Shown here: in pieces, positions 3,832 to 52,185 of the stretch
Position numbering within the stretch: position 1 is the stretch's first letter
Layout of the letters: every line of letters begins with the position of its first letter
Source: an uncultured Acidobacteriota bacterium
GTDB taxonomy: Bacteria > Acidobacteriota > Thermoanaerobaculia > Multivoradales > UBA5704
Direction: 5' to 3'
Assembly: GCA_963770895.1 (NCBI GenBank)
Contig: CAVYRF010000002.1
Coordinates: forward strand, 3,616,001-3,680,000
Length of the DNA: 64,000 nucleotides
Translations under genes and position numbers: made by a program
The notes under the pieces: generated by a model
Database searches by the model: none
What the model saw: only the letters and a program-made list of their open reading frames with translations
What the model was told of the DNA's origin: nothing

Positions 3832-4650
3832 TCAGTCGGCCGGCCAGGCGGGCGGCGTGAAGGTCCAGCCTGGCGAGGCGTTGATGGCGGCGGCGCGGGC
3901 GGCGTCGGCGGTCATGGCGCCGAAGGTGGCGCGCGCCTGGGCTTCGCGGTTGATCCAGTAGCCGCCGGCGACCGCCTGCAGGTTGGTCTGGACGGCGAGC
4001 GCCTGGCGGGTCAGCAGCTGCTCCTGGGCGGAGAAGCCGGCGAGCGTGGTGAGCAGCTCGAGCGCCTGCTGGTGACCCTGGGTGCCGGCCATCTGGGCGC
4101 GGATCGCGGCCAGCAGCTGCTCGCCGGCGGCCAGCTCCTGGCCCTGGCGGGCGGCGGCGGCGAGGCCGGCGCGCAGGGTGTCGAGCGCCCGGTCGGTCTG
4201 CTGCGGGTAGGTGGTGCCGAAGGTCGCGGTCCAGCTCTGCCAGCCCGGATAGGTGGCGGTGAACTCGCCGCCGGGGTCGGGCAGCGAATAGCCGAGCGAC
4301 TGCCCCGAGCGCGCCAGCGCCGCCAGGTCGCCCAGCTCGCTCGCCACCTGGCGCCATGCCGGCGCGTCGAGCTTGCGCAGCGCCTGGAGCTGGTAGCGGA
4401 TCTGCTGCGCCTGGTTGGCCAGCTGCTCCACCTGCTGGTAGATCTGCAGGGCGAACTGCAGGTAGTGGACGTAGTGCCAGTGCGCGTTGAGCGCGATGTG
4501 CGCCACGTCGGTCACCGGGATGATCGCCGCCGCGGGCGGCGTCGCGGCGGCCGTCTGCAGGACCAGCGCCAGGGTCGCCGCGGCGGCGACCGTGCGGCGG
4601 CGGCGCGCGGCAGCGGGGGAGGGGGCGGGGGGGCGTGGCAGGATGGTCAT
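3832..4650 (-). CDS. trbJ: TrbJ/VirB5-like minor pilin
   Basis: ATG overlapping trbE stop; signal peptide then IPVTD, Gln-rich helices (QIYQQVEQLANQAQQI), GTQGHQQALE. Confidence 0.75.
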   Translation of the reverse strand: MTILPRPPAPSPAAARRRRTVAAAATLALVLQTAAATPPAAAIIPVTDVAHIALNAHWHYVHYLQFALQIYQQVEQLANQAQQIRYQLQALRKLDAPAWRQVASELGDLAALARSGQSLGYSLPDPGGEFTATYPGWQSWTATFGTTYPQQTDRALDTLRAGLAAAARQGQELAAGEQLLAAIRAQMAGTQGHQQALELLTTLAGFSAQEQLLTRQALAVQTNLQAVAGGYWINREAQARATFGAMTADAARAAAINASPGWTFTPPAWPAD

Positions 4651-7223: not shown

Positions 7224-7555
7224 GGCGTCGTCGGCAGCGCCGGGTCGGGAGGCGCGGGCGGCGCGTGGAGCGGCGCGCCGGCGGCGTAGAAGTCGGCGCC
7301 GCGCAGGCTGCGCACGTAGAGGTCGGCGACGCGCGGGTCCTTGGCGCACAGGAAGACGGCCAGGGGGTGGAAGACCAGGGCGTAGAACAGGGCGAGCGCC
7401 AGGGTGAGCAGGTGCGGCCCGGCTTCGAACAGCAGCAGGAACACCGCCGCCGCCTCGAACAGCAGGAACTGCGGCGCGACGCCGGCGTAGAGCACCGGCC
7501 GCCACAGCGAGGCGTGCAGGCGCGTCTTGGCCGGGGTGGTGGGCGTCGAGGTCAT
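7220..7555 (-). CDS. trbD: TrbD/VirB3 family protein
   Basis: LHASLWRPVLYAG...AKDP small membrane protein between trbC and trbE. Confidence 0.85.
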   Translation of the reverse strand: MTSTPTTPAKTRLHASLWRPVLYAGVAPQFLLFEAAAVFLLLFEAGPHLLTLALALFYALVFHPLAVFLCAKDPRVADLYVRSLRGADFYAAGAPLHAPPAPPDPALPTTP

Positions 7556-13600: not shown

Positions 13601-15345
13601 ATGTAGTGCCGGCCCAGGAACTCTTCGCTGGCGCGGGTGCGGTCGGCGGGGTCGGTGCGCGACAGGGCGTCCCAGGCTTCGCGGGCCTGGCGCCCCTCCG
13701 CCACCTCGATCTCGCGGCCGATCTGGTCCACCGGCCAACCGGCGGCGAACAGGTCGAGGTGCACGTACCCCAGGGTCAGGTCGTGCAGCACCAGCACGCC
13801 GGGCCAGCGGCGGATGGCCTCCAGCATGAAGACGTGGAACATGGAGGCGCCCAGCTGGTAGATCACGGCGTCGAACGGCTGGCGCCGCCGGCGGCGCTCG
13901 AAGGCGGTGTAGTGGAAGACCGGCCAGGCGGTGACCAGCTCCTGGTCCGGCAGGTAGCCGTCGTCGACGAACAGCTCCAGGTCCGCCGCCGGCGCCAGCG
14001 CGCCCAGCAGCTCGGCGGTGTAGTCGGAGATGCCGCTGGCGATCGGCGGCAGCGGTCCCCAGAATGCCAGGCGCAGGCGGCGCGGCGGCGCCGGTTGCCG
14101 CCCGCGCGGCGGCAGGGGGCGGGGGGGGCGCGCCGCGTCGTCGTCAGCGATGGCCTGCCGGTAGCTTTGCAGCGTGGCCTCACCCAGGCGGCGCGGCGTG
14201 AAGCCGGCGGCGCGCGCCAGGCCGGCGGCGCGCAGATCGCGGCGCAAGCCGGGGTCGCCGTCGAGCTGGGCGAAGGCGCGGGCGAAGCTGGCCGGGTCTT
14301 CGGGGTCGACCAGCAGGCCGGCCTGGCCCACCACTTCCGCCGGCGCCCCGGCGCCGGCGGCGATGACCGGCGCGCCGCAGCGCATCGCCTCGAGCGCCGG
14401 CATGCCGAAGCCTTCGTAGCGCGACGGCAGCACGAAGAAATGGCAGGCGTTGTAGAGCGCCGCCAGCTCGCGGTCGGCGACGAAGCCGGGGACGATGGTC
14501 TGGTCCCGAATGCCCAGGTCGAGCAGCCAGCGCTCGACGACATGGCGCCCGGCCAGGTCGAAGTCGCCGACCACCACCAGCGGGTGGCGGCGGCGCCACG
14601 GCTCCGGCATCGCGGCGAAGGCGCGCAAGAGCGTCAGCGCGTTCTTGGCGTGGTGGAGGTGGGTGAGCGACAGCACGAAGTCTTCGGGCAGCGGCACGCG
14701 GTGCCGGAGGTCCGTCAGGGCGGCCGCCACGGCCGGCGCGTCGAGCGGCCGGAACCAGGGTTCGGCGATCGGGTAGGCGACGTCGATGCGCCGGCGGTCG
14801 ATGCCCAGCTGGTCGGCGGCTTCGTCGCGCGCAAAGCTGGAGATGGCCAGCAGGCGGTCGGCGAAGCGCAGCGCCCGCGTCGTGCGCAGGTAGCGCGCCA
14901 GCTCCGCGCCGCGAAAGTAGCGGTCGCGGTAGATCAGCGGGATCAGGTCGTAGTGCGTCGCGACCAGGGCGCAGCTGTCGCAGCGCCAGAAGGCAGGCTC
15001 CGCGTTCTGAAACGGCGTCGTGGCATGGAAGAGGTCCAGCCCCAGGTCGGCAAGCAGCCCTGAAAGGGCGGCGGCATGGCGCAACAGGTCGCGCTCGGCG
15101 TGAGGCTCGCCCTGGCCGGTCAAACCGGGTGGCAGGCTCGCCCGCGAGACGTTGGGCGCGGCGGCGATCTCGGGCAGCAGCAGCTCGGGATCGCCGTCGG
15201 GCGCCAGCAGCAGCACGAACTGGTGCTGCCGCGCCTCCGGCAGGCGCAGGACTTCGCGCAGCTGCTGCTGGGTGAAGCGCCCCATGCCGCGGTCGACCGT
15301 GGCGCGGCCGCCGGACAGCATGCGGAAATCGACCCCGAATCGCAT
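10690..15345 (-). CDS. Multidomain glycosyltransferase: GT4-GT4-SAM methyltransferase-coiled coil
   Basis: GT4 #1 THYDLIP...PSRYEGFGMPALEAM; GT4 #2 GPLPPIASGISDY...VVNLRFP; MTase LGVGAGSE, MDGRVLDFPDDTF, SIEHFG, VLAPGG; heptad-rich region ~11240-11620. Confidence 0.85.
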   Translation of the reverse strand: MRFGVDFRMLSGGRATVDRGMGRFTQQQLREVLRLPEARQHQFVLLLAPDGDPELLLPEIAAAPNVSRASLPPGLTGQGEPHAERDLLRHAAALSGLLADLGLDLFHATTPFQNAEPAFWRCDSCALVATHYDLIPLIYRDRYFRGAELARYLRTTRALRFADRLLAISSFARDEAADQLGIDRRRIDVAYPIAEPWFRPLDAPAVAAALTDLRHRVPLPEDFVLSLTHLHHAKNALTLLRAFAAMPEPWRRRHPLVVVGDFDLAGRHVVERWLLDLGIRDQTIVPGFVADRELAALYNACHFFVLPSRYEGFGMPALEAMRCGAPVIAAGAGAPAEVVGQAGLLVDPEDPASFARAFAQLDGDPGLRRDLRAAGLARAAGFTPRRLGEATLQSYRQAIADDDAARPPRPLPPRGRQPAPPRRLRLAFWGPLPPIASGISDYTAELLGALAPAADLELFVDDGYLPDQELVTAWPVFHYTAFERRRRRQPFDAVIYQLGASMFHVFMLEAIRRWPGVLVLHDLTLGYVHLDLFAAGWPVDQIGREIEVAEGRQAREAWDALSRTDPADRTRASEEFLGRHYMLRSLIDASLAQIVHLPRAAQEIEERYPRARVFSFPMGVEDPRISHPAGDAASLRRFYNLPADAFIVGTFGIADPVKRIEAALQAVARIAPQVPGAMLIVVGRFSRPAYRIRLKEVARDLGIASRLRLFEQVAKGDFYRLLLACDAVVNLRFPFRKQMSATLLRAIAAGRPVAVTDVADWDHLPARFCYRIKPDDQEAVHLAGWLAGLAADPGHAAAAGRAAREYHLAHGTLQQMADHYRAVIEELTERPAHQLPPEAAATGAGADPAADAGADAGEGGGLAHNKVCAIEDFRDPELAALIRDIFPHEAAVRGADFPAGTEDRKHWEIAMSVRALRRYGALRPDATLLGVGAGSELTCFYLTRHVARVIATDLYLGPGQWQEASTLMLTRPQELCPYPFESWKLTVQHMDGRVLDFPDDTFAGVFASGSIEHFGGLADVAAAAYEIGRVLAPGGVAVLSTEFLIAGPPGASGWQDVQLFDAAGLRRHIVQASGLEPVDDLVPAVSAATLATSRELLEAARQIGHGERRLPHLVLSHQGQVFCSVHLALRKTPAYPATDNSWARPAADLRQDVARAAAAAGERLRGALAGAATPPATAPTADATPTAPTTQTAPAAPADAAAAPSPSDLAGALERWDAVRRRSSLSAPASGPAPARAWRFLRRAIRRVRDLGVAWDREHDLLRALIDAQAAARIGADAARDAANAARDAAGAALDARIASLGALEAELARLLDMNAERQDLLAALHDVTTRQNTLTARLAGLAVRQDAAEQGLAGHSRSLLAVEQRLPRDRAAAAPRQDNGAHGAHRANGAHPANGAAGAGCTPEALTRLLAVLDQQLPALANTAAVEVSAHSPRAAELHQAAAAHLGSRLADGGGGLPGAGRFPSDAWLHVDLTPGGDHPILLENAAGRLARGGLFLLVTAAPSTATTAVADGGQPHPAPPRHPALRPAGQLDATAALGLPAQVLIWEKV

Positions 15346-15601
15346 GTCCAGGTCAGCGGCGGACGAGGCTCGCGAAGCCAGCGGCGACTTGTGACATTGA
15401 AGCCACAATCATAGCCGACCGCGGCGCGACATGGAACGCCGGGGGGGTGGCACCCACCCGTGGACACCCCGGGGGAGCAAGCGATCGCGTGACAGCCGGC
15501 AGATCCTGCTGGACAGGTGGCGGAGCGGACCCATACACTAGGAGCGGTTCCAAAAAACCGTGGACATGCCTGCCAGAGGGCAGGCAAGGAGGGTTGTTGC
15601 A

Positions 15602-36510: not shown

Positions 36511-36702
36511 AACGCCGGCGGTCAGTCTGGTGGATCTCGGCCGCGCCGCCGGTCCCGCCGCGGGTGGAGGCAGGGTTCGCCCGATCGAGCGCGGCCGGAA
36601 GCGCCGCGGCCGCCGGCGGCTGAGCAGCCGCTGGAGCGCGTGCTGGCGCGCCGGGCCGGGCGGAGCCGCGGCCGGATGGGGCGGTATATGATGAAGGACC
36701 CC

Positions 36703-38526
36703 ATGCTGCGGCTGCGTTTTGCCATCGGCGGTGAAGAGCGGGTTTTCCCCCTGGCCGGGGGACGGGTGCGGCTGGGGCGGGGCGGCGAAAACGACATCGT
36801 GCTGGGGGACGTCTCGGTATCGCGGAACCACGCCGAGATCCGCCGCGGCCCCGACGGCTGGACGATCCACGACCTGCAGAGCACCAACGGGGTGGACGTC
36901 AACCGCGTCTCGGTGCGGTCGGCGCCGCTCCGCGCCGGCGACCAGATCACCATCGGCGCCTTCGAGCTGGCGGTGGAAGCCATCTCCGTCGAGCGGCCGG
37001 CGCCTGCTGCCGGGGCGGCTGAACCGCCAGGTCCGGCCTCCGCTGGCGGCGGCGCGGGTGCAGGCCGTCCTGCCGAGGCCGCCGCGACCAGCCGGCCGCC
37101 ACCGTATCCGGCCGGCGCGGGTGCCGTCCGCGACGTGCGCCAGACGCCGCCGGCCGCCGGTCGCGGCGCCGCGGCGCCGTCGTCGGCGGCGATCGACGGG
37201 GATGAACCATTTCTAGCCAACGCCACGATCGTGCGGCCGCTGGCGGACCTGACCGCGGCGTTCGGGCTGCAGGCGGCGGCGCCGGCCGAAGCCGGCCAGC
37301 CGCAGCCGGCAGGGGGCGGCGACCGCGCCGACGCCCACCGGATGCTGGGGTTCCTCGCCCGGCTGGCGCGGGTGCTGCTGGTCGCGGATTCGGTGGACGA
37401 CGTTTTGGTGCGGGTGCTCGACATCGTGTTCGAGGCGCTGCCCGTCGACCGCGGCTTCATCCTGCTGGGCGACGATGGCGGCGACTTGGTGTGCGAGGCG
37501 GTGCGGCTGAAAGACCGCGTCGAGCTGCGCCCCTCCGTCGAGGTGCCGGTGTCGCGCACCATGCTGCGCGCGGTGATGCGCGAGCGGGTGGCGCTGGTGA
37601 CCTACGACGCGCAGTCCGACCAGCGGCTGCGCGGCGGCGAATCGATCCGCCTGCACCAGATCCGCGCCGCGATGTGCACCCCGCTGTGGTCCGGCGATCA
37701 CCTCATCGGCGTGGTGCAGGTGGATACGCCGTTTCATGTCGGCGCCTTCGGCGAACGCGAGGTCGACTTCCTGGCCACCATTGCCAACTATGCGGCGGTG
37801 GCGGTCGAGCGCATCCGTTTCGCCGCCAAGGCGGAGTTCGAAAAGCAGGTGCGCACCCGCCTGGCTCGCTACCACTCGCCGGCCTTGGTCGAAGAGGTGC
37901 TGCGCCAGGGCGAAGCGGGCGCCGATCAGGACACGATCCACCGCCCGCGGGCCGCCGAGGCGACGGTACTGTTCGCCGACCTGGTGGGGTTTACCGCCTT
38001 TGCCGAAAACTCGACGCCCGAAAACGTCGCCGACCTGCTCAACGGCTTTCTCAACCTTTCGGTCGAGGCCATCTTTGCCGCCGGCGGCACCCTGGACAAG
38101 TTCATCGGCGACTGCGTGATGGCCTTCTTCGGCGCGCCGGTGCCGCAGGAGGACCACGCCCAGCGCGCCGTGCGCGCGGCGGTCGAGATCCAGCGCAGCC
38201 TGCACGCCTGGAGCGCCGAGCGCGTCGCCGCCGGGTTGCCGGGCTTCGCCGCGCGGGTGGCGCTCAACAGCGGCCCGGTGGTCGTCGGCGACGTGGGCAG
38301 CGCCCGCCGTGTCGACTACACGGTGCTCGGCAACACCGTCAATGTCGCCGCGCGCCTGGAAGCCTTCGTCGCCCGCCCTGGCGACGTGGTGCTGGGCCCC
38401 GAAACCCACCGCCTGCTGGCAGGAGCCATCGCCACCGAGCCCCTGGGTGAGCTGCGCCTCAAGGGCTTGCAGCAGAAAATCCACGCCCACCGCGTCGCCG
38501 GCATGACCGTCGCCGCGGAAGCCTAG
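36703..38526 (+). CDS. FHA-GAF-class III adenylate cyclase
   Basis: FHA LGR..VSRNHA..STNG; GAF; cyclase LFADLVGFT, DKFIGD, DYTVLGNTVNVAARLE; alternative starts at 36688/36691. Confidence 0.9.
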   Translation: MLRLRFAIGGEERVFPLAGGRVRLGRGGENDIVLGDVSVSRNHAEIRRGPDGWTIHDLQSTNGVDVNRVSVRSAPLRAGDQITIGAFELAVEAISVERPAPAAGAAEPPGPASAGGGAGAGRPAEAAATSRPPPYPAGAGAVRDVRQTPPAAGRGAAAPSSAAIDGDEPFLANATIVRPLADLTAAFGLQAAAPAEAGQPQPAGGGDRADAHRMLGFLARLARVLLVADSVDDVLVRVLDIVFEALPVDRGFILLGDDGGDLVCEAVRLKDRVELRPSVEVPVSRTMLRAVMRERVALVTYDAQSDQRLRGGESIRLHQIRAAMCTPLWSGDHLIGVVQVDTPFHVGAFGEREVDFLATIANYAAVAVERIRFAAKAEFEKQVRTRLARYHSPALVEEVLRQGEAGADQDTIHRPRAAEATVLFADLVGFTAFAENSTPENVADLLNGFLNLSVEAIFAAGGTLDKFIGDCVMAFFGAPVPQEDHAQRAVRAAVEIQRSLHAWSAERVAAGLPGFAARVALNSGPVVVGDVGSARRVDYTVLGNTVNVAARLEAFVARPGDVVLGPETHRLLAGAIATEPLGELRLKGLQQKIHAHRVAGMTVAAEA

Positions 38527-39801: not shown

Positions 39802-40638
39802 TCAGGGGGCGAGCGAGAGGTGACCGGCACGGCGGGCGTCGGGGTCGGTGCCGTGGCCTTCGTAGAGCGCCAGGACCTCGCTGGTTTCGCCGTCGGCGAT
39901 CAGGCGGCCGGCGTCGATCCAGATGGAGCGCGTGCAGTTGTGGCGGATGGCCGCGGCGTTGTGGGAGACCATGAGGACGGTGGTGCCGGCGTCGTGGAAG
40001 CGGCGCAGGCGCTCTTCGCACTTGTGGATGAACGAGGAGTCGCCGACCGCCAGCACTTCGTCGAGGATCATGATGTCGGGCACCCAGGCGGTGGCGATCG
40101 AAAAGCCCAGGCGCGCCAGCATGCCGCTCGAGTAGTTGCGAATCGGGGCGCGCACGAAGTCGCCCAGGCCGCTGAACTCGACGATGCCGTCGATCACTTC
40201 CGCGATCTCGCGCCGCGTGCGCCCCAGCAGCATGGCGTTCAAGTAGATGTTTTCGAAGCCGGTCAGCTCGCGGTCGAAGCCGGTGCCAAGCTCAAGGATG
40301 GGGGAGAGGCTGCCGCGCATCCTGGCGGTGCCGGTGGTCGGCTTGAGCACCTTCGAGATCACCTTGAGCAGCGTGCTCTTGCCGGCGCCGTTGCGGCCCA
40401 CGATGCCCACCGTTTCACCGCTTTTGATCGTAAGGTCGATGTCGCGCAGCGCCCACAGCTGTTCGTACGACAGCGCCCCCTTCATGAAGTGGATGGCGAA
40501 TTCCTTGAACGAGCGGATGCGCTGCTTGGCCAGGCGGTAGCAGAGCGAAACCCCGGCAAGCTCGATGCGCGCTTCGTCCGCGCCGGCGGCGGGTGCCGCC
40601 GCTTCGGAGCGGGGCGGCGCTGTCAGGGTGGCGGCCAT
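39802..40638 (-). CDS. wzt: Polysaccharide ABC transporter ATP-binding subunit (Wzt/TagH-like)
   Basis: GIVGRNGAGKSTLL, ELTGFENIYLN, YSSGMLARLGFS, ILDEVLAVGD. Confidence 0.88.
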   Translation of the reverse strand: MAATLTAPPRSEAAAPAAGADEARIELAGVSLCYRLAKQRIRSFKEFAIHFMKGALSYEQLWALRDIDLTIKSGETVGIVGRNGAGKSTLLKVISKVLKPTTGTARMRGSLSPILELGTGFDRELTGFENIYLNAMLLGRTRREIAEVIDGIVEFSGLGDFVRAPIRNYSSGMLARLGFSIATAWVPDIMILDEVLAVGDSSFIHKCEERLRRFHDAGTTVLMVSHNAAAIRHNCTRSIWIDAGRLIADGETSEVLALYEGHGTDPDARRAGHLSLAP

Positions 40639-40700
40639 GGGAGGGAGGAGAGGATACCGCGTCCGGCGCCGGTCTGCGGCGCCGGACGGCGGCAAGGCGG

Positions 40701-42539
40701 CTATTTGCGGCGCTGATTGCTCGACTTGAAGAAGTCGCCCAGAGCCCCGAAGCTGGACGGCGGCTGTGCGCTGGGGGTGCCGGCTTCGCGCTCACCACGG
40801 TCACCGCGGTCGCGATCCCGGTCCCGGTCGCGATCCCGGTCGCGATCCCGATCCCGGTCCCGGTCACGCTCGCGTCCCCCCTCGCGCTCGCGCGCCGGGG
40901 CCTCGGAGGCGCTGGTGCCGCCGCCGCCGCTGCCGCGCTCGTCGCTGAGCGCCAGGGAGAGCGAGATGCGGCGCTTGACCGGATCGACGCTGAGCACCCG
41001 GACGCTCACGTCCTGGCCGATCTGCACCGCTTCCTTGGCATGGTTGAGGCGCCGCCCGGCGCCCAGCTCGCTGATGTGCGCCAGCCCTTCCAGGCCGGGG
41101 GCGACTTCGATGAAGGCGCCGAAGGATTCGAGCCGCATGACCCTGCCCGGCACGATCGCGCCGTCGGTGAAACGCTGCGCCGCGTCGCGCCAGGGGTCGC
41201 GTTCCAGGGCGCGCCGCGACAGCGAGATGCGCTCGGGGCGCTTTTCGTCCTTGCCCTTTTCGATCTTGATGACCTGGACTTCGATCTCCTGGCCCACCGT
41301 CAGCGCCTCGCGCGGATCGGCGAGGCGGGAGTAGCCGATCTCGCTGACGTGCAGCAGCCCTTCCAGGCCGCCGAGGTCGATGAAGGCGCCATACGTCGTG
41401 AGGGAGGTGACGCGCCCCTTGAGCACGGCGCCGATCTGCAGGCGGGCGCGCAGCTCGGCGGCCTTGGTCTGCGCTTCCTCCTCGAGCAGGGCGCGGCGGG
41501 ACAGCACGATGTCGGGGCGGCGGTTGCGGCCGCCTTCTTCGATGCGCGACACCTTGAACTTGAGCTTCTGGCCGATGAACTGCTGCGGGTTTTCGACGTA
41601 GCGCAGATCGAGCTGGGACAGCGGGCAGAACGCGCGCATGCCGTAGACCTGCAGTTCTGCGCCCCCTTTGTTGATGCCGGTGACCAGGCCCTCCACCGGC
41701 ATGCCATACTGGAACGCTTGGCGCAGCTCGGTGGCGACCTCCTGCTGGCCGCCGCGTCCCGAGGCCTTTTTGCGCAGCACGATGACGCCGCTCTCAGGGT
41801 CGATGGCGGTGACCACCGCGTCGATCTGGTCGCCCACGTTGACCGTCAGGTTCCCTTCGGCGTCGCGCAGCTGCGCGGCTTCGATCATCCCTTCGGACTT
41901 GGTCCCCAGGTCCACGAACACCTGGTCGTCGGTGATCGAGAGCACCTTGCCGCTCACCTTGCGGCCGACGCTGGGCGTGCCGGCGCCCGCCGGTGCCGCC
42001 CCCGCTGCCGGCGCCGCGCCGCCGCCACCGGCGGCTGCCGCATCGCCGCCCGCGGCGCCCTGCTTCTTTTCGAACTCGGCGAGGATCTCGGCGAAGCCGC
42101 GCGCATCGGCTTCCGACACGCCCGCCACCCCCGCGTCCGCCGTGCTGCCGGCCGGTGATCCGGCCGCGGTGGGCGAGGTGGGCGCCGCGGGCTCGGCAGG
42201 CTTTGCCGATGCCGCCGCATCCGCAGACGCCGCCGGCGGCTCGGCTGCCGGCGCCGGCTCTGACTGAGCCGCCGCCGCGGACGGTGATGCCGCGGGCGCC
42301 GTGGCCGTGGGCGCCTGCTCAGGCGCGGATGCCGCGGCCGGTGCGCCGGCGGCGTCGCTCTGCCCGCCCTCTGCTTGCCACTGCGACTCTGCCGCCTGCG
42401 ATTCGCCTGCCGTGTCGGACTGCCCCGGCGCCGCGTTGGGGTCCTGGGGAGGCGGCGCTGCCTCGAGCTCGGTGGTCTGTGGGGATGCGTCGTTCTGGCG
42501 CTCGGGCTCGTGCGCGGGGGGAGTTTGGGGCTGTTCCAT
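40701..42539 (-). CDS. S1 RNA-binding protein (RpsA-like paralog, 4 S1 domains)
   Basis: Four S1 repeats (VFVDLG, RAFCPLSQ, YGAFIDLGGLEGLLHVSE, FGAFIEVAPGLEGLAHISE); long Ala/Pro N-terminus; RD tail. Confidence 0.85.
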   Translation of the reverse strand: MEQPQTPPAHEPERQNDASPQTTELEAAPPPQDPNAAPGQSDTAGESQAAESQWQAEGGQSDAAGAPAAASAPEQAPTATAPAASPSAAAAQSEPAPAAEPPAASADAAASAKPAEPAAPTSPTAAGSPAGSTADAGVAGVSEADARGFAEILAEFEKKQGAAGGDAAAAGGGGAAPAAGAAPAGAGTPSVGRKVSGKVLSITDDQVFVDLGTKSEGMIEAAQLRDAEGNLTVNVGDQIDAVVTAIDPESGVIVLRKKASGRGGQQEVATELRQAFQYGMPVEGLVTGINKGGAELQVYGMRAFCPLSQLDLRYVENPQQFIGQKLKFKVSRIEEGGRNRRPDIVLSRRALLEEEAQTKAAELRARLQIGAVLKGRVTSLTTYGAFIDLGGLEGLLHVSEIGYSRLADPREALTVGQEIEVQVIKIEKGKDEKRPERISLSRRALERDPWRDAAQRFTDGAIVPGRVMRLESFGAFIEVAPGLEGLAHISELGAGRRLNHAKEAVQIGQDVSVRVLSVDPVKRRISLSLALSDERGSGGGGTSASEAPAREREGGRERDRDRDRDRDRDRDRDRDRDRGDRGEREAGTPSAQPPSSFGALGDFFKSSNQRRK

Positions 42540-42938
42540 GATCGATCTCGCTTTCGGTTCGGGGGGGCTGATTCGACGCCTCAGCTTAGTGGAAACGATC
42601 GGGGCTGGCGATTCGTTCCATGGCGGCCGCTCCGAGGTCAAGGACTCGGCCGCTCCGGGTCGAGCGAAACTATCACGCCGCACGCCGCGATGCGCCCCCG
42701 CCGGCAAAAAAACCGCCGGCGGCGGCGTCACAAAATCGCCGCCTGCACACCGTCATGAGAGCGCCGACGGGCGCCGACGGGCGCCGACGGGCGCAGGCCG
42801 GCGCGGGTCGGCGTGGGCAGGCGTGGGCAGGCGTGGCCGCGGCCCTCGCCAATCGCCAGGCGCGGCGATAGGATGCAAGGCTGCCCGTTGCACCGCCGTA
42901 CACCACCTGACACCAGCCCCGCGAGGACCTGACCGCGT

Positions 42939-45900
42939 ATGCCCGAACAGCGATCGCAGCCACGCCCGTCCCACGCCCAGGCAGCACCGGCGGCTGCCGC
43001 AGCGGCCTGCCGCACGGATCGTTGGATGCATTGTTTGCCCACAACCGATCTTGCCCAGCGTACCGCCCTTGCTTCGCGGAACCCGTCGAACCTGCTTGCT
43101 GCTGGCAACGGCGCGAGGTCCGGGCTCCGTCGCGATCCGGCGCCAGGCACCGGACAGCCGAAGTCCGCGAGGGGACCGGGAGTTGCCGTGTGCGCGGTGG
43201 CGTTGGCGACGCTCGGGTTGCTGGTCACCAGCACGGCCGGGCATGCCGCGGCTCCGCCAGCCACGGCGCCCGTTGCGTCTGCGTCCGGCGCCGTGCCGGT
43301 TGCATCGTCGCCTGCGGCCGCGCCCGCCCAGGGGACGCCTGCCGGTGCGAGCGCTGCCGCGTCGCCGGGGCCGCGCCCGGCTGGGACCTCTGGGATCGCC
43401 GGGACCGCTGGGATCGATCCGCGGGAAGAGCATTTTGCCGATCTGCGGATGCTCACCCACGGCGGGCAGAACGCCGAGGCGTACTGGTCGCCGGATTCGC
43501 GGCAGCTGATCTTTCAGTCGACGCGGCCGCCCTTTGCCTGTGACCAGATCTTTCGCATGCCGGCGGACGGCAGCGGCGCGCCTTCGCTGGTGTCGACCGG
43601 CAAGGGGCGCACCACGTGCTCGTACTTCATGCCGGACGGCCAGCGGGTGCTGTTCTCGTCGACGCATGCGGCCGGGGATGCCTGCCCGCCGCCGGCCGAC
43701 CGCTCGCAGGGATACGTGTGGGCGGTGTATCCGACCTACGACATCTGGACGGCGCGGCCTGACGGTTCCGATCTGCGGCGTTTGACCGACAACCATTTCT
43801 ACGATGCCGAGACGACGGTGTGTCCGCTGGACGGCTCGATGATCTTCACCTCGGACCGCGACGGCGACCTGGAGCTCTACCGGATGGATGCCGACGGCGG
43901 CAACGTGCGGCGGCTGACCTCGGCGCCGGGCTACGACGGCGGCGCCTACTTCTCGCCCGACTGCAAGATGATCGTCTGGCGCGCCTCGCGGCCGCAGGGC
44001 GCCGAGCTGGAAGACTACCGGCGCCTGCTGGCGCAAGGGCTGGTGCGGCCGGGCAAGCTGGAGATCTGGGTGGCCAACGCCGATGGCAGCGAAGCACGCC
44101 AGCTGACCTACCTGGATGCCGCCTCGTTCGCTCCCTCGTTCTTCCCCTCGGGCAAGCGGGTGATCTTCTCGTCGAACTACGGTGACCCCCAGGGGCGGGA
44201 ATTCGAGCTGTGGGCCGTCAACCTGGACGGCAGCGGCCTTGAGCGCATCACCTATTCGCCGGGTTTCGACGGCTTTCCGATGTTCTCCCCGGACGGCACC
44301 CGCCTGGCCTTCGCCTCCAACCGCGGCAACACCCAGCCGCACGAAACCAACGTCTTTGTCGCCACCTGGCGCGACCAGCCCGCGCCGCCCGCCGCAGCCG
44401 CCGCAGGTGTGGCGCCGCCCGCCGCGTCCGCCGCAGGTGTGGCGCCGGCCGGCGTCGCCGCCAGCGCCGCGGCGAGTGAAGGCATGGGCACGGCCCCCGC
44501 CGCATCGTCTGGAAGCGCCGCCGAGACCGCTCCGCCTCCCGCTTCGCCTGGAGGCGTGGCGACGACTGCTCCGCCCGCTGCATTGCCAGCAGGCGCTGCC
44601 ACAGTGGTTTCGCCTCCCGCGCTGGCAGGAAGCGCTACTGCGACCGCTTCGCCTGCCGCGGGGCAGGGTGTGATCAGCGTGGGGCTGCCGGCGGATGTGC
44701 TGACGGCCGACCGCTTTCGCGACGAGGTGCGCTGGCTGGCCGATCCCGCCCGCGCCGGCCGGGGCATTGGCAGCGCCGGCCTGGACGCGGCGGCACATTG
44801 GCTGGCGGACCGCTTCCGCGATCTCGGGGCCGCACCGGCGGGCGGCAGCGGCAGCTACTTCCAGCCTTTCGACGTGCCGGTGGCGATCGAGGTGGGCGGC
44901 GTGACGGCGGTCAGCCTGGACGGCGAGCGGCTGGCGCGCGCCAGCTTCCAGCCGGCGGGCTTCTCCGCTTCTGCCGCGGCGGGCTCGCCGGCGTCCGGTC
45001 GTCAGGATGCGGCGACGTCAAGGGACTCTGGCGTCGCGGTGGCTGGCGGTCAGACGGCAGCGATGCCAGGCGGTTCGGGCGCCGTGGCGTCGACCGGTCT
45101 GGATGCAGCGACGGCAGGCGGTCCGCGTGGTGTGGTGGCTGGCCGTCAGGATGGAGCGGCGTCAAGCGGCTCGGGCGGCGGGGCGGCTGCCGGCGAATTA
45201 GCTGTGGTGGCCGCCGGCTACGGCATCGTGGCTCCCGCCCTGGGAGTGGACGACTACCGCGGCGTTGCGGCGCGCGGCAAGGTCGTGGTGGTGCGCCGGT
45301 TCACGCCGGCCAGCGGGCCGCTTGCCGCGCCCGACGCCGCGCGGCGGTTCGGCGACCTGCGGTACAAGGCGCACGTCGCCCGCGAGCACGGCGCGCTTGG
45401 GCTGATCGTCGTGGACCTTCCGGACGACACGGCCGCGGCTGCGATCGCTCCCGCCGGCGCTGGCGGCGGTGCGCAGCCGGCCGTGGTTGCGAGGGGTGCC
45501 AACACCGCCACTCAGGGTGGCGCCGCTGCGGGTCGGGAGCCGGTCAAAGCCGCGGCCGGCGACAACCCAAGGGCTGCCGGCGCCGCCGCTTCTGATGCGT
45601 CGCCGGCCGCGGCCCGCATGCCGGAGGATGCGCCGTTGCCGGCGCCGGAGGTGGATGCGGCGGTGGGGGCGGGGGATGCCGGAATTCCGGTGGTGCTGGT
45701 GACGCGGGCTGCGGGCGCCGCGCTGTTCGATGGGCGGCCGCATCGGGCGGCGCTGGCGGTGGCGCTGACGCGGCGCACGCAGCCGGCGGTCAACGTGGTT
45801 GCGGTGCTGCGCGCCGCGGCGGCGGATCGGCTGCCGGGGGCGGTGGTGGTCGGCGCGCACTACGACCACCTGGGGCTGGGCGGCCATGGGTCGCTGGCGC

Positions 45901-46769
45901 CGGGCTCGCAGGCGGCCCACCTGGGGGCGGATGACAACGCTTCGGGGACGGCGGCGCTGCTGGAGGTGGCGCGCAGTCTGGCGGCCCAGCGCGGGCGGCT
46001 GCGGCGCGACGTCTACCTGGTGGCGTTTTCGGGTGAGGAAGAGGGCGTACTGGGCTCGACCGCCTTCACCCGCCAGCCGCCGGACGGCCTGCACATGGCG
46101 GACGTCGTTGCCATGCTCAACATGGACATGGTGGGCCGCCTGCGCGGCAACCAGCTGACGGTCCTGGGTGGCGACACCGCGGCGGAATGGCGGCAGCTGG
46201 TGCCGGCGGCCTGCGCCCGCGAGAGGGTCGGCTGCAGCCTGGGCGGCGACGGCTACGGCCCGTCGGACCACAGCCCGTTCTATGCCGCGGGTGTCCCGGT
46301 GCTGCACTTCTTCACCGGCACCCACGACGACTACCACAAGCCCAGCGATACCGCCGACAAGATCAACGCCATCGGCGGCGCCCACGTCGCGCTGCTGGTC
46401 GCCGACGTGGCCAGCCAGGTGGCGGCCGCGCCGGCGCGCCTCAGCTACCAAGCCGTGCCAGCGCCGGCCCCCGAAGGCGACGTGCGCTCCTACGGCGCCT
46501 CGCTCGGCACCGTGCCCGACTACGCCGGCGACGGCAGGCCCGGCGTCCTGCTCGGCGGCGTGCGGCCGCAGGGCCCGGCCGACAAGGCGGGCATGCGGCG
46601 CGGCGACCTGCTGGTCGAGCTGGCCGGCACGCCGGTGCGCGACATCTACGATTTCATGTACGTGTTGCAGCGGATGAAACCGGGCGAAACCGCCAAGGCG
46701 GTGATCGACCGCGCCGGGCAACGCATCCAGCTCGACGTCACCTTCGGCGCCAGCCAGCGTCAACGCTGA
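42939..46769 (+). CDS. PD40/TolB propeller-PA-M28 peptidase-PDZ fusion
   Basis: NAEAYWSPD and FSPDG repeats; PA (DDYRGVAARGKVVVV); GAHYDHLG, GADDNASG, FSGEEEG, NMDMVGR, YHKPSD; PDZ LGTVPDY; start uncertain. Confidence 0.88.
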   Translation: MPEQRSQPRPSHAQAAPAAAAAACRTDRWMHCLPTTDLAQRTALASRNPSNLLAAGNGARSGLRRDPAPGTGQPKSARGPGVAVCAVALATLGLLVTSTAGHAAAPPATAPVASASGAVPVASSPAAAPAQGTPAGASAAASPGPRPAGTSGIAGTAGIDPREEHFADLRMLTHGGQNAEAYWSPDSRQLIFQSTRPPFACDQIFRMPADGSGAPSLVSTGKGRTTCSYFMPDGQRVLFSSTHAAGDACPPPADRSQGYVWAVYPTYDIWTARPDGSDLRRLTDNHFYDAETTVCPLDGSMIFTSDRDGDLELYRMDADGGNVRRLTSAPGYDGGAYFSPDCKMIVWRASRPQGAELEDYRRLLAQGLVRPGKLEIWVANADGSEARQLTYLDAASFAPSFFPSGKRVIFSSNYGDPQGREFELWAVNLDGSGLERITYSPGFDGFPMFSPDGTRLAFASNRGNTQPHETNVFVATWRDQPAPPAAAAAGVAPPAASAAGVAPAGVAASAAASEGMGTAPAASSGSAAETAPPPASPGGVATTAPPAALPAGAATVVSPPALAGSATATASPAAGQGVISVGLPADVLTADRFRDEVRWLADPARAGRGIGSAGLDAAAHWLADRFRDLGAAPAGGSGSYFQPFDVPVAIEVGGVTAVSLDGERLARASFQPAGFSASAAAGSPASGRQDAATSRDSGVAVAGGQTAAMPGGSGAVASTGLDAATAGGPRGVVAGRQDGAASSGSGGGAAAGELAVVAAGYGIVAPALGVDDYRGVAARGKVVVVRRFTPASGPLAAPDAARRFGDLRYKAHVAREHGALGLIVVDLPDDTAAAAIAPAGAGGGAQPAVVARGANTATQGGAAAGREPVKAAAGDNPRAAGAAASDASPAAARMPEDAPLPAPEVDAAVGAGDAGIPVVLVTRAAGAALFDGRPHRAALAVALTRRTQPAVNVVAVLRAAAADRLPGAVVVGAHYDHLGLGGHGSLAPGSQAAHLGADDNASGTAALLEVARSLAAQRGRLRRDVYLVAFSGEEEGVLGSTAFTRQPPDGLHMADVVAMLNMDMVGRLRGNQLTVLGGDTAAEWRQLVPAACARERVGCSLGGDGYGPSDHSPFYAAGVPVLHFFTGTHDDYHKPSDTADKINAIGGAHVALLVADVASQVAAAPARLSYQAVPAPAPEGDVRSYGASLGTVPDYAGDGRPGVLLGGVRPQGPADKAGMRRGDLLVELAGTPVRDIYDFMYVLQRMKPGETAKAVIDRAGQRIQLDVTFGASQRQR

Positions 46770-46871
46770 CCTGGCCGGCGATTGAGGCCCCGGGTGGCGT
46801 TCTGCCGGGAGATTCGGTGGATGAAGGTGTGTGGGGCCATTGTACGCGTCCACCGTGAGCGCCGGCGGGCG

Positions 46872-47169
46872 CTAGCGGCGCCTGGGCCAGCGCTGCGGCT
46901 TGCGCGACAGGTGCATCACTGCGAGGACCCTGATCCTCTCGGAGGCGAAAGAAAACTCCGAACGGAAACCGTTTCAGCAGCGCCCGGCGAATGTCACGGT
47001 GGACCTGTGGGTATTGACGTGGCCCGGAAGCCACGTCCTTCAAGGTCTGCTCGACGAGATCGAGAAACGCGCGGCCGAGTCCCTGCGATCGATTCTCGTA
47101 CCACTCCGCAGCCTCCAACGCTTCCATCTCGGCCTCCCAGGCGACCGAGAGAGGCAGGGTAGGCTTCAT
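46872..47169 (-). pseudogene. RelE/ParE family toxin, frameshifted
   Basis: AAEWYENRSQGLGRAF...RRALLKRFPFGVFF; the canonical end IRVLAVMHLSRKPQRWPRRR* is in another frame after ~46930. Confidence 0.75.
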
Positions 47170-47390
47170 AGCTTGGCAAGGATTCTCTGCTTGACTTCTT
47201 CCCAAGGCGAGCCGGATTCTGGCGCCGCTTCGTCGGCGGCCAGGCGCTCGTCAAGGATCTCGCGCTGCCAGGCCGGAAGTTCGAGCTGCAATGGCTCCAG
47301 TTCAAGGCTCTCCCAGAGAGCTTCGGCCAGCTCCAGGCGATCCTCGACCGGTAGTTGAAGGGCCTCCGACCTGAGCTCCGTCTTGGTCAT
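47166..47390 (-). CDS. Addiction module antitoxin (TIGR02574-type)
   Basis: ALQLPVEDRLELAEALWESL, WQREILDERL, PWEEVKQRI; ATGA overlap with toxin; TATGCT 7 nt upstream (leaderless). Confidence 0.88.
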   Translation of the reverse strand: MTKTELRSEALQLPVEDRLELAEALWESLELEPLQLELPAWQREILDERLAADEAAPESGSPWEEVKQRILAKL

Positions 47391-47472
47391 GGGGCCTAGC
47401 ATAAGCCCGGCTATGCGGAGCGCCCCGGTCACCTACGCAGGACGCTCTGAGCTCCGGTGAGGCCGGTGATGT

Positions 47473-50400
47473 TCAGGCAGATGCATTTCCGATCAGGGCC
47501 GCCGCCTGGCGCGTGTATGGGTGCTCCACTCCCAGGTGGGCCAGGAACACGGCGTGCGCATGCTCCCAGAGCGATCTCGCCGCCCGCGTCTCTCCCTGCT
47601 TCAGGAAGAGAGCTGCCAGATTCATCTCGGTGATTGCCGTCGAATAATGCTCTCGAGTGCCGAACACCTGGACCTCGATCTCAAGCACCCGTTCGAGGTG
47701 GCGCCGCGCCCCCGCCAGATCGCCCTGGGCCTGAAGCACGCCGGCCAGCTCGTGCAGCGAGGCAGCCACGGAAGGGTGCAGCTCGGTGCCCAACACCTGG
47801 GCATCGATTTCGAGCGCGCGTTCGAGGTGGCGCCGCGCCCCCGCCAGATCGCCCTGGGCCTGGAGCACGCCGGCCAGCGCGTGCAGCGAGGCGGACACGG
47901 AGGGGTGCAGCTCGGTGCCCAGCACCTGGGCTTTGATTTCGAGCGCGCGTTCGAGGTGGCGCCGCGCCCCCGCCAGATCGCCCTGGGCCTGAAGCACGCC
48001 GGCCAGCTCGTGCAGCGAGGCAGCCACGGAAGGGTGCAGCTCGGTGCCCAACACCTGGGCTTTGATTTCGAGCGCGCGTTCGAGGTGGCGCCGCGCCCCC
48101 GCCAGATCGCCCTGGGCCTGGAGCACGCCGGCCAGCGCGTGCAGCGAGGCAGCCACGGAAGGGTGCAGCTCGGTGCCCAACACCTGGGCATCGATTTCGA
48201 GCGCGCGTTCGAGGTGGCGCCGCGCCCCCGCCAGATCGCCCTGGGCCTTGAGCACGCCGGCCAGCGCGTGCAGCGAGGCGGCCACGGAGGGGTGCAGCTC
48301 GGTGCCCAGCACCTGGGCATCGATTTCGAGCGCGCGTTCGAGGTGGCGGCGCGCCCCCGCCAGGTCGCCCTGGTCCTGGAGCACACCGGCGAGCGTGTGC
48401 AGCGAGGTGGACACGTCGCGATGCATCTCGCCCTTCTGGGCAGTCTCGACCTGTAGGGATCGCTGGAGATAGTCCGCCGCGCTGCGTAGCTGACCTTTGT
48501 GTAGTGCCAACTTCCCGAGCTCGGCGAGAACAGACGACCGATCTTCGGGCTCGACCAGCTCGAGTGCCCGGAGAAGCTGCTGCTCAGCATCCACGGTACT
48601 GGTTCCGGCAAGTCTGCCCAGCTGCGCCTGGAATGTACGTGCGACGCCCAGGTGCGCACCGCTCGGTGCCGCGGCCAATACCAGCTCCACCCATCCCAGG
48701 GCCTCCCGATAGCGACCTTTCTCGCGGAGATGGATGGCGACGAGCCTGGCGGTCGGCCACGCCGCGTCACCGTCCCCCGCAGCCGTGAGGTGCAGCACGG
48801 CTCGCTCCCCCCACAGCTGCGACCGTTCCTTTCCGTACCGCTGCTCGTACCAGCGCCCGAGCAGGCGATGCGCCTCCCGCGGCTCCCCGGTCCAGTGCTT
48901 GAGTGCCTCGTTGGATACCAGGCGGTGAGGCGCCCACCAGTCTGGTCCACCCAGGGGCGCCTGGAATGGGCTCAGCATCCCTGCTTCGACAAGCACGGCC
49001 GAGGTGCCCTCAGCCGGTTCCATGGCACGCACCGCTTCCCACGGGGCTGGGGCCGTGAGCACCGTACAGTGTCCGAGATGGTCCTGGGCATTTGGCGGCA
49101 GCGCTGCCCAGACGCTGCCGAGCAGCAGGTCTGCGCCAACCTTGTCGCGGGTTTGGGGCAGCACCGGCGCCAGGATCTCCTCGCGCCACCGGCCGGCCTG
49201 ATAGCGCCCGCCTGGCGGCACGAGCTGGCGCTCCCTCTGGTGTGCCAGCACCTCCAGGTATTCGACCGTGCGCGGATGGCCGTCAATCGTCTCTTCGGCC
49301 AGCCAGGCGCGGTCCTCTGCGGGCAGGCGGCCCAGGGTTGGCATCCAGGCCAACAGGCGCACCACCTCGAAGCGGCGCAGCGGCGCCAGGGGCAGCGCCA
49401 CCTCCGCGGCGGTTCCTTCGGGCAGGTAACGGGAGGATGCGAGCAGGCCGAGGGAACCTCGCGGCCGGGCCGCTGCCCGCAGCAGCTCCCAGAAACGCCG
49501 GAGCTCCGCGTCTCGGAAGCGGCCCAGGGCGCCGTGTTCGCTGTGTTCGCCGTGCTCGACCTCTGCGACCGGTTGCTGCAGGCTCTCGGCGTCGTCGAGG
49601 TAGACCAGGAGGCCCCCCTTGATACTCGCCAGGTCGACGACCGCTTGCGCCAGCGCTTCCCCGGTGATGCCGTGTTGTTGCAGCTCGGCCAGCCTGCGGC
49701 TCCAGGCGTCGCCGGCGTGCGCCGCCTGCACCTCCTGCCAGAGGGCGAGGATCGGGCTGGCCTGGGCGCCGGCGTGGCGCCCGTCGAAGGCCAGGACGGC
49801 GGCGCCACCGGGCGCCATGTCGCGCGCCAGGAGGGGCGCCAGCTCGGTGCACAGGGCGGTCTTGCCGAGGCCGCCAAGGCCCAGGACCACGAGCTGGCGG
49901 TCGCCCTCGCGCCGCCAGCGCCGCAGCGCTTCCGCTCGCTCCTTGCGCCGGCCGACGAAGCCGAAACGCAGGCGCTGGACGCCGCGGATGCCCTCCACCC
50001 GGTCGCTGCCGCCGCGGCGGTTCAGCTGCTCGAAGTGCCGGCGTCGATCGTCTTCGAGGTCGACGGGCGGCCCCCCGGCGGCGATCGCCAGGGCCGTCGC
50101 CGTGTCCGCGCCGCGGTGGTAGAGCGCGAGCTGCGCCCAGCCCAGGGGATAGACGTGGGTGGGCTTGCCGTGGTCGAAGTGGGGTGTGCTCGAAACGCGC
50201 CGCGCCCGCCGCAGCGCCTGGCGCGCCTTGCTGCCGCTGGCCAGGGCCGCATAGAAGGCCGCTGCCGCGCGCGTCGCCTGGTGGTCGCCCACCGGACCGA
50301 AGTACGCCACCACCTGCGGCAAGCCGGCACGGTGGAGCGATGCGGCCGTCGACGGGGCCGTCGGCTCGCTGCCGAGCGCCGCGTCGACCATCCGCTGGCC

Positions 50401-52185: not shown

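Follow-up and report, generated by a model that had tools for sequence, protein, structure and literature searches.

The question raised by this locus is whether one bacterial gene may encode a complete cell-death receptor with two enzymes on a single chain and, if so, how the two enzymes would be wired to each other. The stretch analysed (hereafter the window; 64,000 nucleotides of the forward strand of contig CAVYRF010000002.1, from an uncultured Acidobacteriota bacterium with a genome of 8.16 Mb in 3 contigs) carries on its minus strand a single intact open reading frame (ORF) of 1570 aa, with an ATG start and no internal stop (Table 1). In a first-pass annotation made from the letters alone, a SIR2 NADase, a CHAT protease, a STAND ATPase and a tetratricopeptide repeat (TPR) tail were read in this ORF, and the product was taken as a candidate immune receptor of the NLR/STAND type. 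That reading is supported by the domains, the invariant catalytic residues, the predicted folds and the alignment with ThsA, and the order SIR2 – CHAT – STAND – TPR was confirmed by Pfam, conservation, structural models and homolog search. The protein is, on balance, probably a single-chain NLR-like (Apaf-1/CED-4-type STAND) cell-death or defence receptor of a soil Acidobacteriota bacterium, in which a protease and a NADase would be fired by oligomerisation. Judged by sequence, it belongs to a conserved dual-enzyme NLR-like family, in which the CHAT–NB-ARC–TPR part is known and the tandem of SIR2 or TIR with CHAT is what appears to be new.

All of the motifs quoted in the first-pass annotation were present in the translation: GAGAS (residues 46-50), TTNYD (136-140), KLHGS (175-179) and GCS (220-222) in the SIR2 part, HWSGHG (536-541) and LSTC (579-582) with both catalytic residues in the CHAT part, and Walker A GLGGLGKT (769-776) and Walker B LLVYLDD (858-864) in the NTPase. 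The codon-position GC of the ORF (0.81/0.52/0.86) is typical for the likely genes of the window, whose GC is high (~0.64-0.80 in 2-kb bins).

The SIR2 domain was matched by Pfam SIR2_2 at residues 133-251 (78.6 bits; cut-off 24.5). When the family profile was compared with the PDB, ThsA was matched (6lhx, E 7.8e-27) together with DSR2 and KomC, the structures of the three being deposited as NADases or SIR2-like defence proteins. By pairwise alignment N138 and H177 fall on N112 and H152 of ThsA, which we take to be its catalytic residues, and the PDB entry names 'DSR2 H171A' and 'KomC(H146N)' agree with a catalytic role of the aligned His. Seventeen PADLOC matches were obtained at E<=0.1, all inside residues 38-239, the best being ThsA (E 2.8e-17, profile positions 24-201 of 478). 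NCBIfam gave partial matches below cut-off only, to FxSxx_TPR over the repeats and to Dsr2 (E 6e-4), and deacetylases scored only E ~0.03-0.04 against the SIR2 domain. With a SIR2_2 fold and the Asn and His of defence-type members, the domain is, by these scores, closest to the defence NADases ThsA, DSR2 and KomC and not to deacetylases. A second SIR2-domain ORF (658 aa open frame; G000:C2:5516327-5516884) is present in the same genome and is 35% identical to residues 38-225.

For the CHAT module, the Pfam match covers residues 479-686 (43.5 bits; cut-off 24). A fold search was needed for residues 300-1200, because no match was obtained for them in the PDB by sequence at E<=10. Residues 290-740 were modelled by AlphaFold from a 26-row alignment (mean predicted local distance difference test score (pLDDT) 82.2, predicted template modelling score (pTM) 0.85), with low confidence in the first 12 residues (290-301), in a loop at model residues 301-319, which follows C582 (protein residues ~590-608), and in the tail; residues 290-301 and the loop after the catalytic Cys are, from the model, probably flexible. 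By Foldseek against the PDB, the model was matched to the separase protease domain (5fby, E 1.2e-9) and further to the SAVED-CHAT filament (8tl0), Csx29/Craspase (8eey and 7y84), DdvA, gingipains and legumain. Since the separase alignments span ~540 columns, residues ~300-428, which are unmatched by Pfam, are assigned to an N-terminal CHAT subdomain and not to a separate domain. The module thus combines the caspase fold of clan CD with a His-Cys dyad, of which H540 and C582 are both invariant. Among the fold-search matches, the CHAT and separase proteins that have been characterised process substrates at specific sites and do not degrade proteins in bulk.

The STAND ATPase, whose sequence score is sub-threshold, was borne out by invariant Walker motifs and a confident Apaf-1-like model. 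Residues 720-1215 were modelled from a 33-row alignment (pLDDT 90.9, pTM 0.87), and the fold matches in the PDB were Apaf-1 in the apoptosome (3j2t, E 3.7e-9), full-length Apaf-1 (3sfz, E 1.1e-8), a STAND-TPR protein (6mfv, E 1.9e-8), CED-4 (2a5y, E 5.8e-8), several entries of the plant resistosome NLRs NRC2/3/4, ZAR1 and Sr35 (E 4.3e-7 and weaker) and, more weakly, several ORC/Cdc6 and AAA+ proteins; SAMD9 was found at rank 38 (9zjv, E 3.4e-5, TM-score on the query (TMq) 0.21). An invariant 'GHPRT' and H1087 are presumably the counterparts of the GxP and MHD-type motifs. The homologs carry AAA_16, and the Pfam NB-ARC model, with no match to the 1570-aa protein, matched a relative (P0150) at 23.2 bits. 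From the Walker motifs and the model, the switch is predicted to be an NB-ARC/AP-ATPase-type STAND module, that is, a P-loop NTPase of the Apaf-1/CED-4/R-protein fold such as defines NLR/AP-ATPase receptors.

A word-indexed protein search with a query including SIR2 gave 60 proteins at E<=1e-3, and SIR2_2 and CHAT were both present in 40 of them (precomputed Pfam), usually with AAA_16 and TPR families. The names in the sources are uninformative ('tetratricopeptide repeat protein', 'CHAT domain-containing protein', 'SIR2 family protein'), and the sources named are metagenome-assembled genomes of Thermoanaerobaculia and Pyxidicoccus trucidator. In an alignment of 25 homologs (27-90% identity to the query), T136 T137 N138 Y139 D140, H177 and G220 C221 S222 of SIR2, G539 H540 and C582 of CHAT, and G769-T776, D864, E867, G969, P971, R972 and H1087 of the NTPase were invariant, which places each of the three catalytic centres under purifying selection. 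A chimeric assembly was considered and rejected, equal domain order being present in proteins of independent sources and at the loci L001, L002/L162, L081, L082 and L083. Two candidate relatives were also rejected: L089, which has a weak SIR2 match only, and L087, considered as a low-GC full-length homolog, which proved to consist of two genes, a SIR2-STALD gene of the ThsA type and a separate TPR gene after it. In L087 (827-5379, 32% GC) the SIR2-STALD gene overlaps by 4 nt the gene of a 1048-aa protein consisting almost wholly of TPR_12/TPR_10, and both adjoin genes for a relaxase and a type IV coupling protein, which belong to a conjugative element; the pair may be a ThsA+TPR two-gene system outside the SIR2-CHAT family.

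The extent to which this arrangement is constant was estimated with residues 300-1200 as the query of a HMMER scan of 1.84 billion cluster representatives, in which the CHAT+NTPase core was matched by 1378 proteins at E<=1e-3, 301 at <=1e-10 and 163 at <=1e-30. In their targets the core matches start around residue 280-300, around residue 4-40 or elsewhere, so the N-termini vary in the family. By purpose-built hidden Markov models (HMMs), a near-complete core was found in 121 of 203 family proteins, 64 of them with SIR2, 12 with TIR and 45 others (27 with <150 and 18 with >=150 other residues before the core), in a sample biased towards SIR2 because the query of the 60-protein search included it. 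Thirteen non-SIR2 representatives were scanned with Pfam. TIR_2+CHAT+AAA_16+TPR was found in nine (P0142, P0148, P0152, P0160, P0137, P0151, P0156, P0128 and P0190, the TIR_2 of P0152 being just below cut-off with 27.3 against 28 bits), EAD5+CHAT+AAA_16 in one (P0065), a divergent SIR2_2 in one (P0120) and no recognised N-domain in two (P0150 and P0064); EAD5 also stands ahead of SIR2 in P0024. SIR2-less CHAT–AAA_16–TPR genes lie within long contigs at L003, L006 and L007, and the SIR2-less members are therefore not all truncations. On a FastTree tree built from the 121 cores, 21 changes are required for the SIR2 label, 14 of them forced by well-supported branches, and 4 for the TIR label, with 3 forced. 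As is usual for NLRs, the N-terminal domain varies among the relatives (SIR2, TIR, EAD5 or none), and in the family a CHAT–NB-ARC-like–TPR chassis is constant while its N-terminal slot is exchangeable and mostly filled by SIR2 or TIR. Both of these are NAD-cleaving immune effectors. In the ESM Atlas, SIR2_2+TPR is represented by one unnamed cluster (55 members, score 0.96) and CHAT–AAA_16–TPR by many, in Cyanobacteriota, Actinomycetota and other groups, which agrees with a widespread chassis of which a smaller branch bears SIR2. Two enzymatic outputs had been claimed for the protein; the architecture behind that claim held, but CHAT is not simply a second, equal effector, being the constant part to which SIR2 is added as a swappable module.

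Two further arrangements were observed in the family. The N-terminus of P0148 has a ParA/AAA_31-like P-loop stretch, followed by TIR_2 and then by the CHAT–AAA_16–TPR core, and two large CHAT–NTPase–TPR paralogs stand in tandem on one Myxococcales contig (L011, 1966-6687 and 8271-12098).

How one switch would control two enzymes can be considered against this modular background. In the favoured reading, the resting protein would be an ADP-bound, autoinhibited monomer, and a non-self or danger ligand, most likely a phage protein, would be bound by the C-terminal TPR array. Nucleotide exchange in the NB-ARC-like module would then lead to oligomerisation and the clustering of the N-terminal enzymes, with CHAT activated by induced proximity in an apoptosome-like manner and the ThsA-like SIR2 activated as a NAD+ hydrolase, and the infected cell would arrest growth or die (abortive infection). 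The ligand, the oligomerisation, the NADase and protease activities and the phenotype are steps that we infer by analogy with apoptosomes, resistosomes and Avs proteins. Parallel firing of CHAT and SIR2 is placed slightly ahead of processing in series, because in CHAT-only members the protease by itself constitutes an output and because oligomerisation alone suffices to activate the SIR2 and TIR NADases of defence systems.

The constancy of CHAT beneath a slot in which the NAD-cleaving domain swaps between SIR2 and TIR, as if the protease serviced whatever lies N-terminal to it, is also what would be expected if oligomerisation activated CHAT only and CHAT then cleaved the polypeptide it belongs to, either in the linker between SIR2 and CHAT or in an inhibitory segment, to free or unmask the NADase; NAD+ depletion would then act as the final effector, with the protease serving as a built-in fuse. 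The site-specific processing by fold relatives of CHAT and separase, the low-confidence and probably flexible stretches at residues 290-301 and after the catalytic Cys, and the precedent of Avs2-trypsin-MBL point in the same direction. However, no cleavage site can be named from the sequence, and members without an N-terminal enzyme exist, some of them on the long contigs mentioned above, in which CHAT must have another substrate; the sufficiency of oligomerisation for defence SIR2 and TIR makes proteolysis unneeded as well. Such licensing by self-cleavage is rated as unlikely. Its wider form, a one-chain apoptosome with a payload, in which CHAT self-cleavage gates an interchangeable NADase and may also cleave host or phage targets, is similarly doubtful; if true, it would mean that the logic of 'NLR, then caspase, then executioner' exists in bacteria in a fused, ancestor-like form whose NAD-cleaving executioners can be interchanged.

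The TIR directly upstream of CHAT in sister proteins suggests that the order could also be reversed, with an NAD-derived signal made by the NADase activating the adjacent CHAT in cis and the protease as terminal effector. An analogy is offered by type IV Thoeris, in which a TIR product reportedly activates a caspase-like protease. CHAT-only members, however, cannot rely on such a signal, no SLOG/STALD, SAVED or Macro nucleotide-sensor domain was found in the 1570-aa protein by Pfam, and we know of no signalling product of ThsA-type SIR2 domains. This order is thus very improbable and, for a ThsA-type SIR2, the least likely of the three wirings, of which parallel firing remains preferred.

The sensing end of the protein was described as a TPR tail, and this was confirmed by Pfam repeats at ~1200-1567 (TPR_12 236 bits, TPR_10 172 bits) and by five near-identical units; PDB profile matches include the kinesin light chain TPR and a Podospora TPR-like protein (4y6c). 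By Tandem Repeats Finder (TRF) the repeat has a period of 129 and 5.9 copies with 94% matches. The pairwise differences among the five 43-aa units are 2-10 nt of 129 (92-98% DNA identity), and their amino-acid differences are confined to 4 columns (16, 29, 34 and 40), while the sixth unit is diverged, with 43-48 differences. With at least 90 positions of >=80% identity to the next unit taken as the measure, a like pattern was found in 8 of 33 family proteins checked (P0001, P0007, P0016, P0019, P0064, P0014 and P0017, with P0024 nearly so at 67 positions), and unit numbers vary between proteins. The C-terminal repeats are thus of the superstructure-forming kind expected of an NLR, and their role would be in sensing. 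High internal conservation of repeats has been described for fungal and bacterial NLRs and tied to rapid diversification through the reshuffling of units. The TPR array of the 1570-aa protein may evolve in the same way, and its homogenised units offer a bacterial test case for the sensor diversification proposed for fungal NLRs.

The coordinates of the gene, its parts and its neighbours are collected in Table 1. Among the neighbours, ribosomal protein S1 has named relatives exclusively in metagenome-assembled genomes of Thermoanaerobaculia or Acidobacteriota, and an Acidobacteriota host is therefore most likely.

Table 1. Positions in the 64-kb window of the 1570-aa gene, its predicted parts and the neighbouring features
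Feature	Window position	Strand	Residues	Basis
Whole ORF, SIR2 – CHAT – NB-ARC-like STAND NTPase – TPR	47473..52185	-		intact frame, homologs with same architecture
SIR2 domain, ThsA/DSR2/KomC-like, predicted NADase type (N138 + H177)	51316..52080	-	~36-290	Pfam, PDB profile, conservation
CHAT protease module, predicted (H540 + C582)	50086..51288	-	~300-700	Pfam, AlphaFold model, fold search, conservation
NB-ARC/AP-ATPase-like STAND NTPase with helical and winged-helix domains, predicted	48616..49983	-	~735-1190	model, fold search, conservation
Walker A; Walker B	within NTPase		769-776; D863/D864	
Putative TPR sensor array, kinesin-light-chain-type TPR_12/TPR_10	47476..48615	-	~1191-1570	Pfam, PDB
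Tandem 129-nt (43-aa) TPR units and diverged sixth	47652..48407	-	1274-1488 + diverged sixth	TRF
Divergent intergenic region, 216 bp, between 1570-aa gene and DUF885	52186..52401	.		sequence
ABC ATPase	39802-40695	-		Pfam
Ribosomal protein S1	40701-42731	-		Pfam
PD40+M28+PDZ peptidase	42939-46769	+		Pfam
ParE-like toxin remnant	46738-47205	-		Pfam ParE_toxin 15.2 bits, three-frame translation
Unstab_antitox antitoxin gene, 40 nt downstream of 1570-aa gene	47166-47432	-		PF09720, 53.7 bits
DUF885	52402-54435	+		Pfam
YfhO-like membrane protein	55255-57633	-		Pfam
Big_7	57718-59952	-		Pfam

The gene is accessory. In a genome of the same genus (G002), S1, the M28 peptidase and DUF885 are syntenic with only ~290 bp from the M28 stop to the DUF885 start and no block with toxin–antitoxin (TA) and NLR genes between them, and the DNA similarity of the window to G002 (L170, G002:C38) stops at 46759 and resumes at 52702; the TA remnant and the 1570-aa gene (46770-52401, 5.6 kb) are therefore an insertion/deletion block. 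No convincing att-like direct repeats were found flanking it, and no tRNA gene and no integrase in the window. Matches to the N-terminal 740 aa at E<=0.001 were obtained in 5 of 9 same-genus genomes, none with a full-length copy, the best being a SIR2-less copy in G002. Some match to these 740 aa is present in 24 of 40 relatives, mostly as CHAT-only paralogs, and a full-length SIR2+CHAT match was found among the 40 only in G025 (53% identity); in G012 the match is made up of fragments at the ends of contigs, and in G009 of one short fragment that contains a stop.

An adjacent TA module had been claimed, and this stands for the antitoxin but not for the toxin, whose ParE-like match is below cut-off (23 bits; profile positions 6-74 of 89) and whose ORF is apparently frameshifted, with the N-terminal part in one frame and the ParE-like C-terminal stretch in another. 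Judged by sequence, either decay of the toxin or an error in the assembly could account for the remnant. At L001 a 54%-identical homolog is flanked by a ParE toxin gene (66 bits) on one side and by a phage-type integrase gene on the other, but this ParE has no similarity to the ParE-like ORF of the window, and the TA association at the two loci is thus not a conserved gene pair. The neighbours at other homolog loci are unrelated (trypsin-like, MopE, transglutaminase, hybrid kinase).

Upstream, TAGCAT is located at 52198-52193, with a spacer of 7 nt to the ATG (52185-52183), as had been noted; its proposed role as the -10 element of a leaderless gene was not supported: a sigma-70 consensus scan of 46700-52600 gave 0 promoter-like sites, and the hexamer is thus no evidence for a promoter or a leaderless mRNA. 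By inspection, no Shine-Dalgarno-like purine run was seen in the 7-nt spacer. An in-frame TAG at 52191-52189, two codons upstream of the ATG, means that no start further upstream is possible. The first ~24 residues are unconserved, and homolog matches start at residues 20-26.

Elsewhere in the window, a 1572-aa ORF at 10690-15408 (minus strand) was rejected as a paralog; it joins two glycosyltransferase (GT4/GT1) regions to a methyltransferase domain. A 628-aa fusion of FHA, GAF and adenylate/guanylate cyclase is encoded at 36640-38526 (plus strand). A 952-aa VirB4/TrbE- and TraG-P-loop-like ATPase at 4647-7505 (minus strand), ~40 kb from the 1570-aa gene, may point to a locus for type IV secretion or conjugation.

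Several observations weigh against the receptor reading. By Pfam, the P-loop region was matched only by AAA_22 at 760-872 with 16.3 bits, below the cut-off of 27. No PADLOC model, including those for Avs, reaches the NTPase or TPR of the protein. The defence-island context that had been looked for is absent, the neighbours (S1, M28, DUF885, YfhO-like and ABC ATPase) being housekeeping-like apart from the TA remnant. The G002 copy (L004/L163; 63-77% identity over the matched segments, without SIR2) is frameshifted inside the NTPase, and the L005 copy has a frame change inside the CHAT domain; these copies look decayed, and selection on the family is therefore not uniform. Inspection of homologous loci revealed neither a conserved partner nor a conserved substrate gene, so that the system would be a stand-alone one. 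The counts of gains and losses on the tree lean upwards, because some 'no N-domain' rows may be 5'-truncated metagenomic ORFs.

The same context bears on whether the protein is antiviral at all. It could instead regulate kin recognition, allorecognition or developmental cell death, or be a regulatory STAND ATPase with a protein-deacylase SIR2, as might be suggested by the lack of a defence island, by the named relatives from Acidobacteriota and the social Myxococcota (Pyxidicoccus), and by the high internal repeat conservation, a hallmark of fungal allorecognition NLRs. The affinity of the SIR2 domain to ThsA, DSR2 and KomC rather than to deacetylases, the lack of any DNA-binding or regulator output domain by Pfam, and the patchy, indel-like distribution beside TA genes and an integrase argue otherwise, and a role of this kind is regarded as quite unlikely. 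The reading of a cell-death or defence receptor is retained.

Bacterial NLR-like STAND proteins normally have one effector, and here a predicted ThsA-type NADase and a caspase-fold protease stand in tandem, with the NADase slot alternatively filled by TIR and both enzyme types known from cell-death immunity. The family thus offers a compact single-gene system for asking in what way a single oligomerisation event governs two catalytic outputs, whether other effectors are licensed by caspase-like proteases in bacteria, and to what degree the mechanism of bacterial CHAT–NB-ARC proteins resembles that of the apoptosome.

The claim that this architecture is not a characterised system was upheld, since PADLOC covers the SIR2 part only and the tandem was not found in full text. 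A tandem of SIR2 (or TIR) with CHAT before the NTPase is undescribed in the full-text literature searched, though supplementary tables of STAND surveys may list it; neither SIR2 nor sirtuin occurs in the main text of Kaur et al. 2020. Computational work, including Dyrka et al., has already described bacterial NLRs and Apaf-1 homologs that carry a CHAT or caspase-like domain at the N-terminus, and the kind is therefore known and only the tandem unusual. Like those CHAT-type NLRs, the 1570-aa protein has CHAT directly N-terminal to an Apaf-1-like NTPase and C-terminal repeats with highly conserved units, and it differs from them by the extra SIR2 in front of CHAT; no experimentally characterised member of the CHAT type was found in the literature searched.

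With Avs5/SIR2-STAND and other Avs proteins it shares an N-terminal effector (SIR2 being a known Avs effector type), a STAND NTPase and a TPR-like sensor. Unlike them, it has a whole CHAT module between SIR2 and the NTPase, an NTPase closest in fold to Apaf-1 and CED-4, and a PADLOC match in SIR2 only. In Avs2-trypsin-MBL, ligand-induced STAND tetramerisation activates a fused protease, which in turn is coupled to the activation of a second enzyme. That protease is trypsin-like and not caspase-fold, its Avs2 sensor recognises terminase, and the second enzyme is a metallo-β-lactamase (MBL) nuclease apparently off the Avs2-trypsin chain.

ThsA, DSR2 and KomC are the closest SIR2 relatives, with aligned catalytic Asn and His. 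Unlike Thoeris ThsA, the 1570-aa protein is without SLOG/STALD and has no ThsB partner, and activation would come from its STAND module; by Pfam, neither STALD nor TIR is present in the protein and no TIR in its immediate neighbours. Separase, SAVED-CHAT and Csx29 have the same two-part fold of an N-terminal subdomain and a caspase-like domain with a His/Cys dyad, at a sequence identity of only 8-17% to the CHAT module, and are regulated by securin, by cyclic oligoadenylate via SAVED, and by Cas7-11 with RNA, respectively. SAMD9/SAMD9L (SIR2 – STAND – TPR – OB) has a like order of SIR2, P-loop STAND and TPR, but its fold match is far weaker than that of Apaf-1, it is without CHAT, and the AlbA/tRNase and OB domains were not found in the 1570-aa protein by Pfam.

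Bacterial fusions of a caspase with Apaf-1 and WD40 sensors have been described, and the idea of an apoptosome with a built-in caspase was voiced there; the bacterial Apaf-1 orthologues described in it use WD40 sensors, whereas the 1570-aa protein uses TPR. Its CHAT sits beside the NTPase where Apaf-1 has CARD, and for this reason the protein resembles an apoptosome with a built-in caspase.

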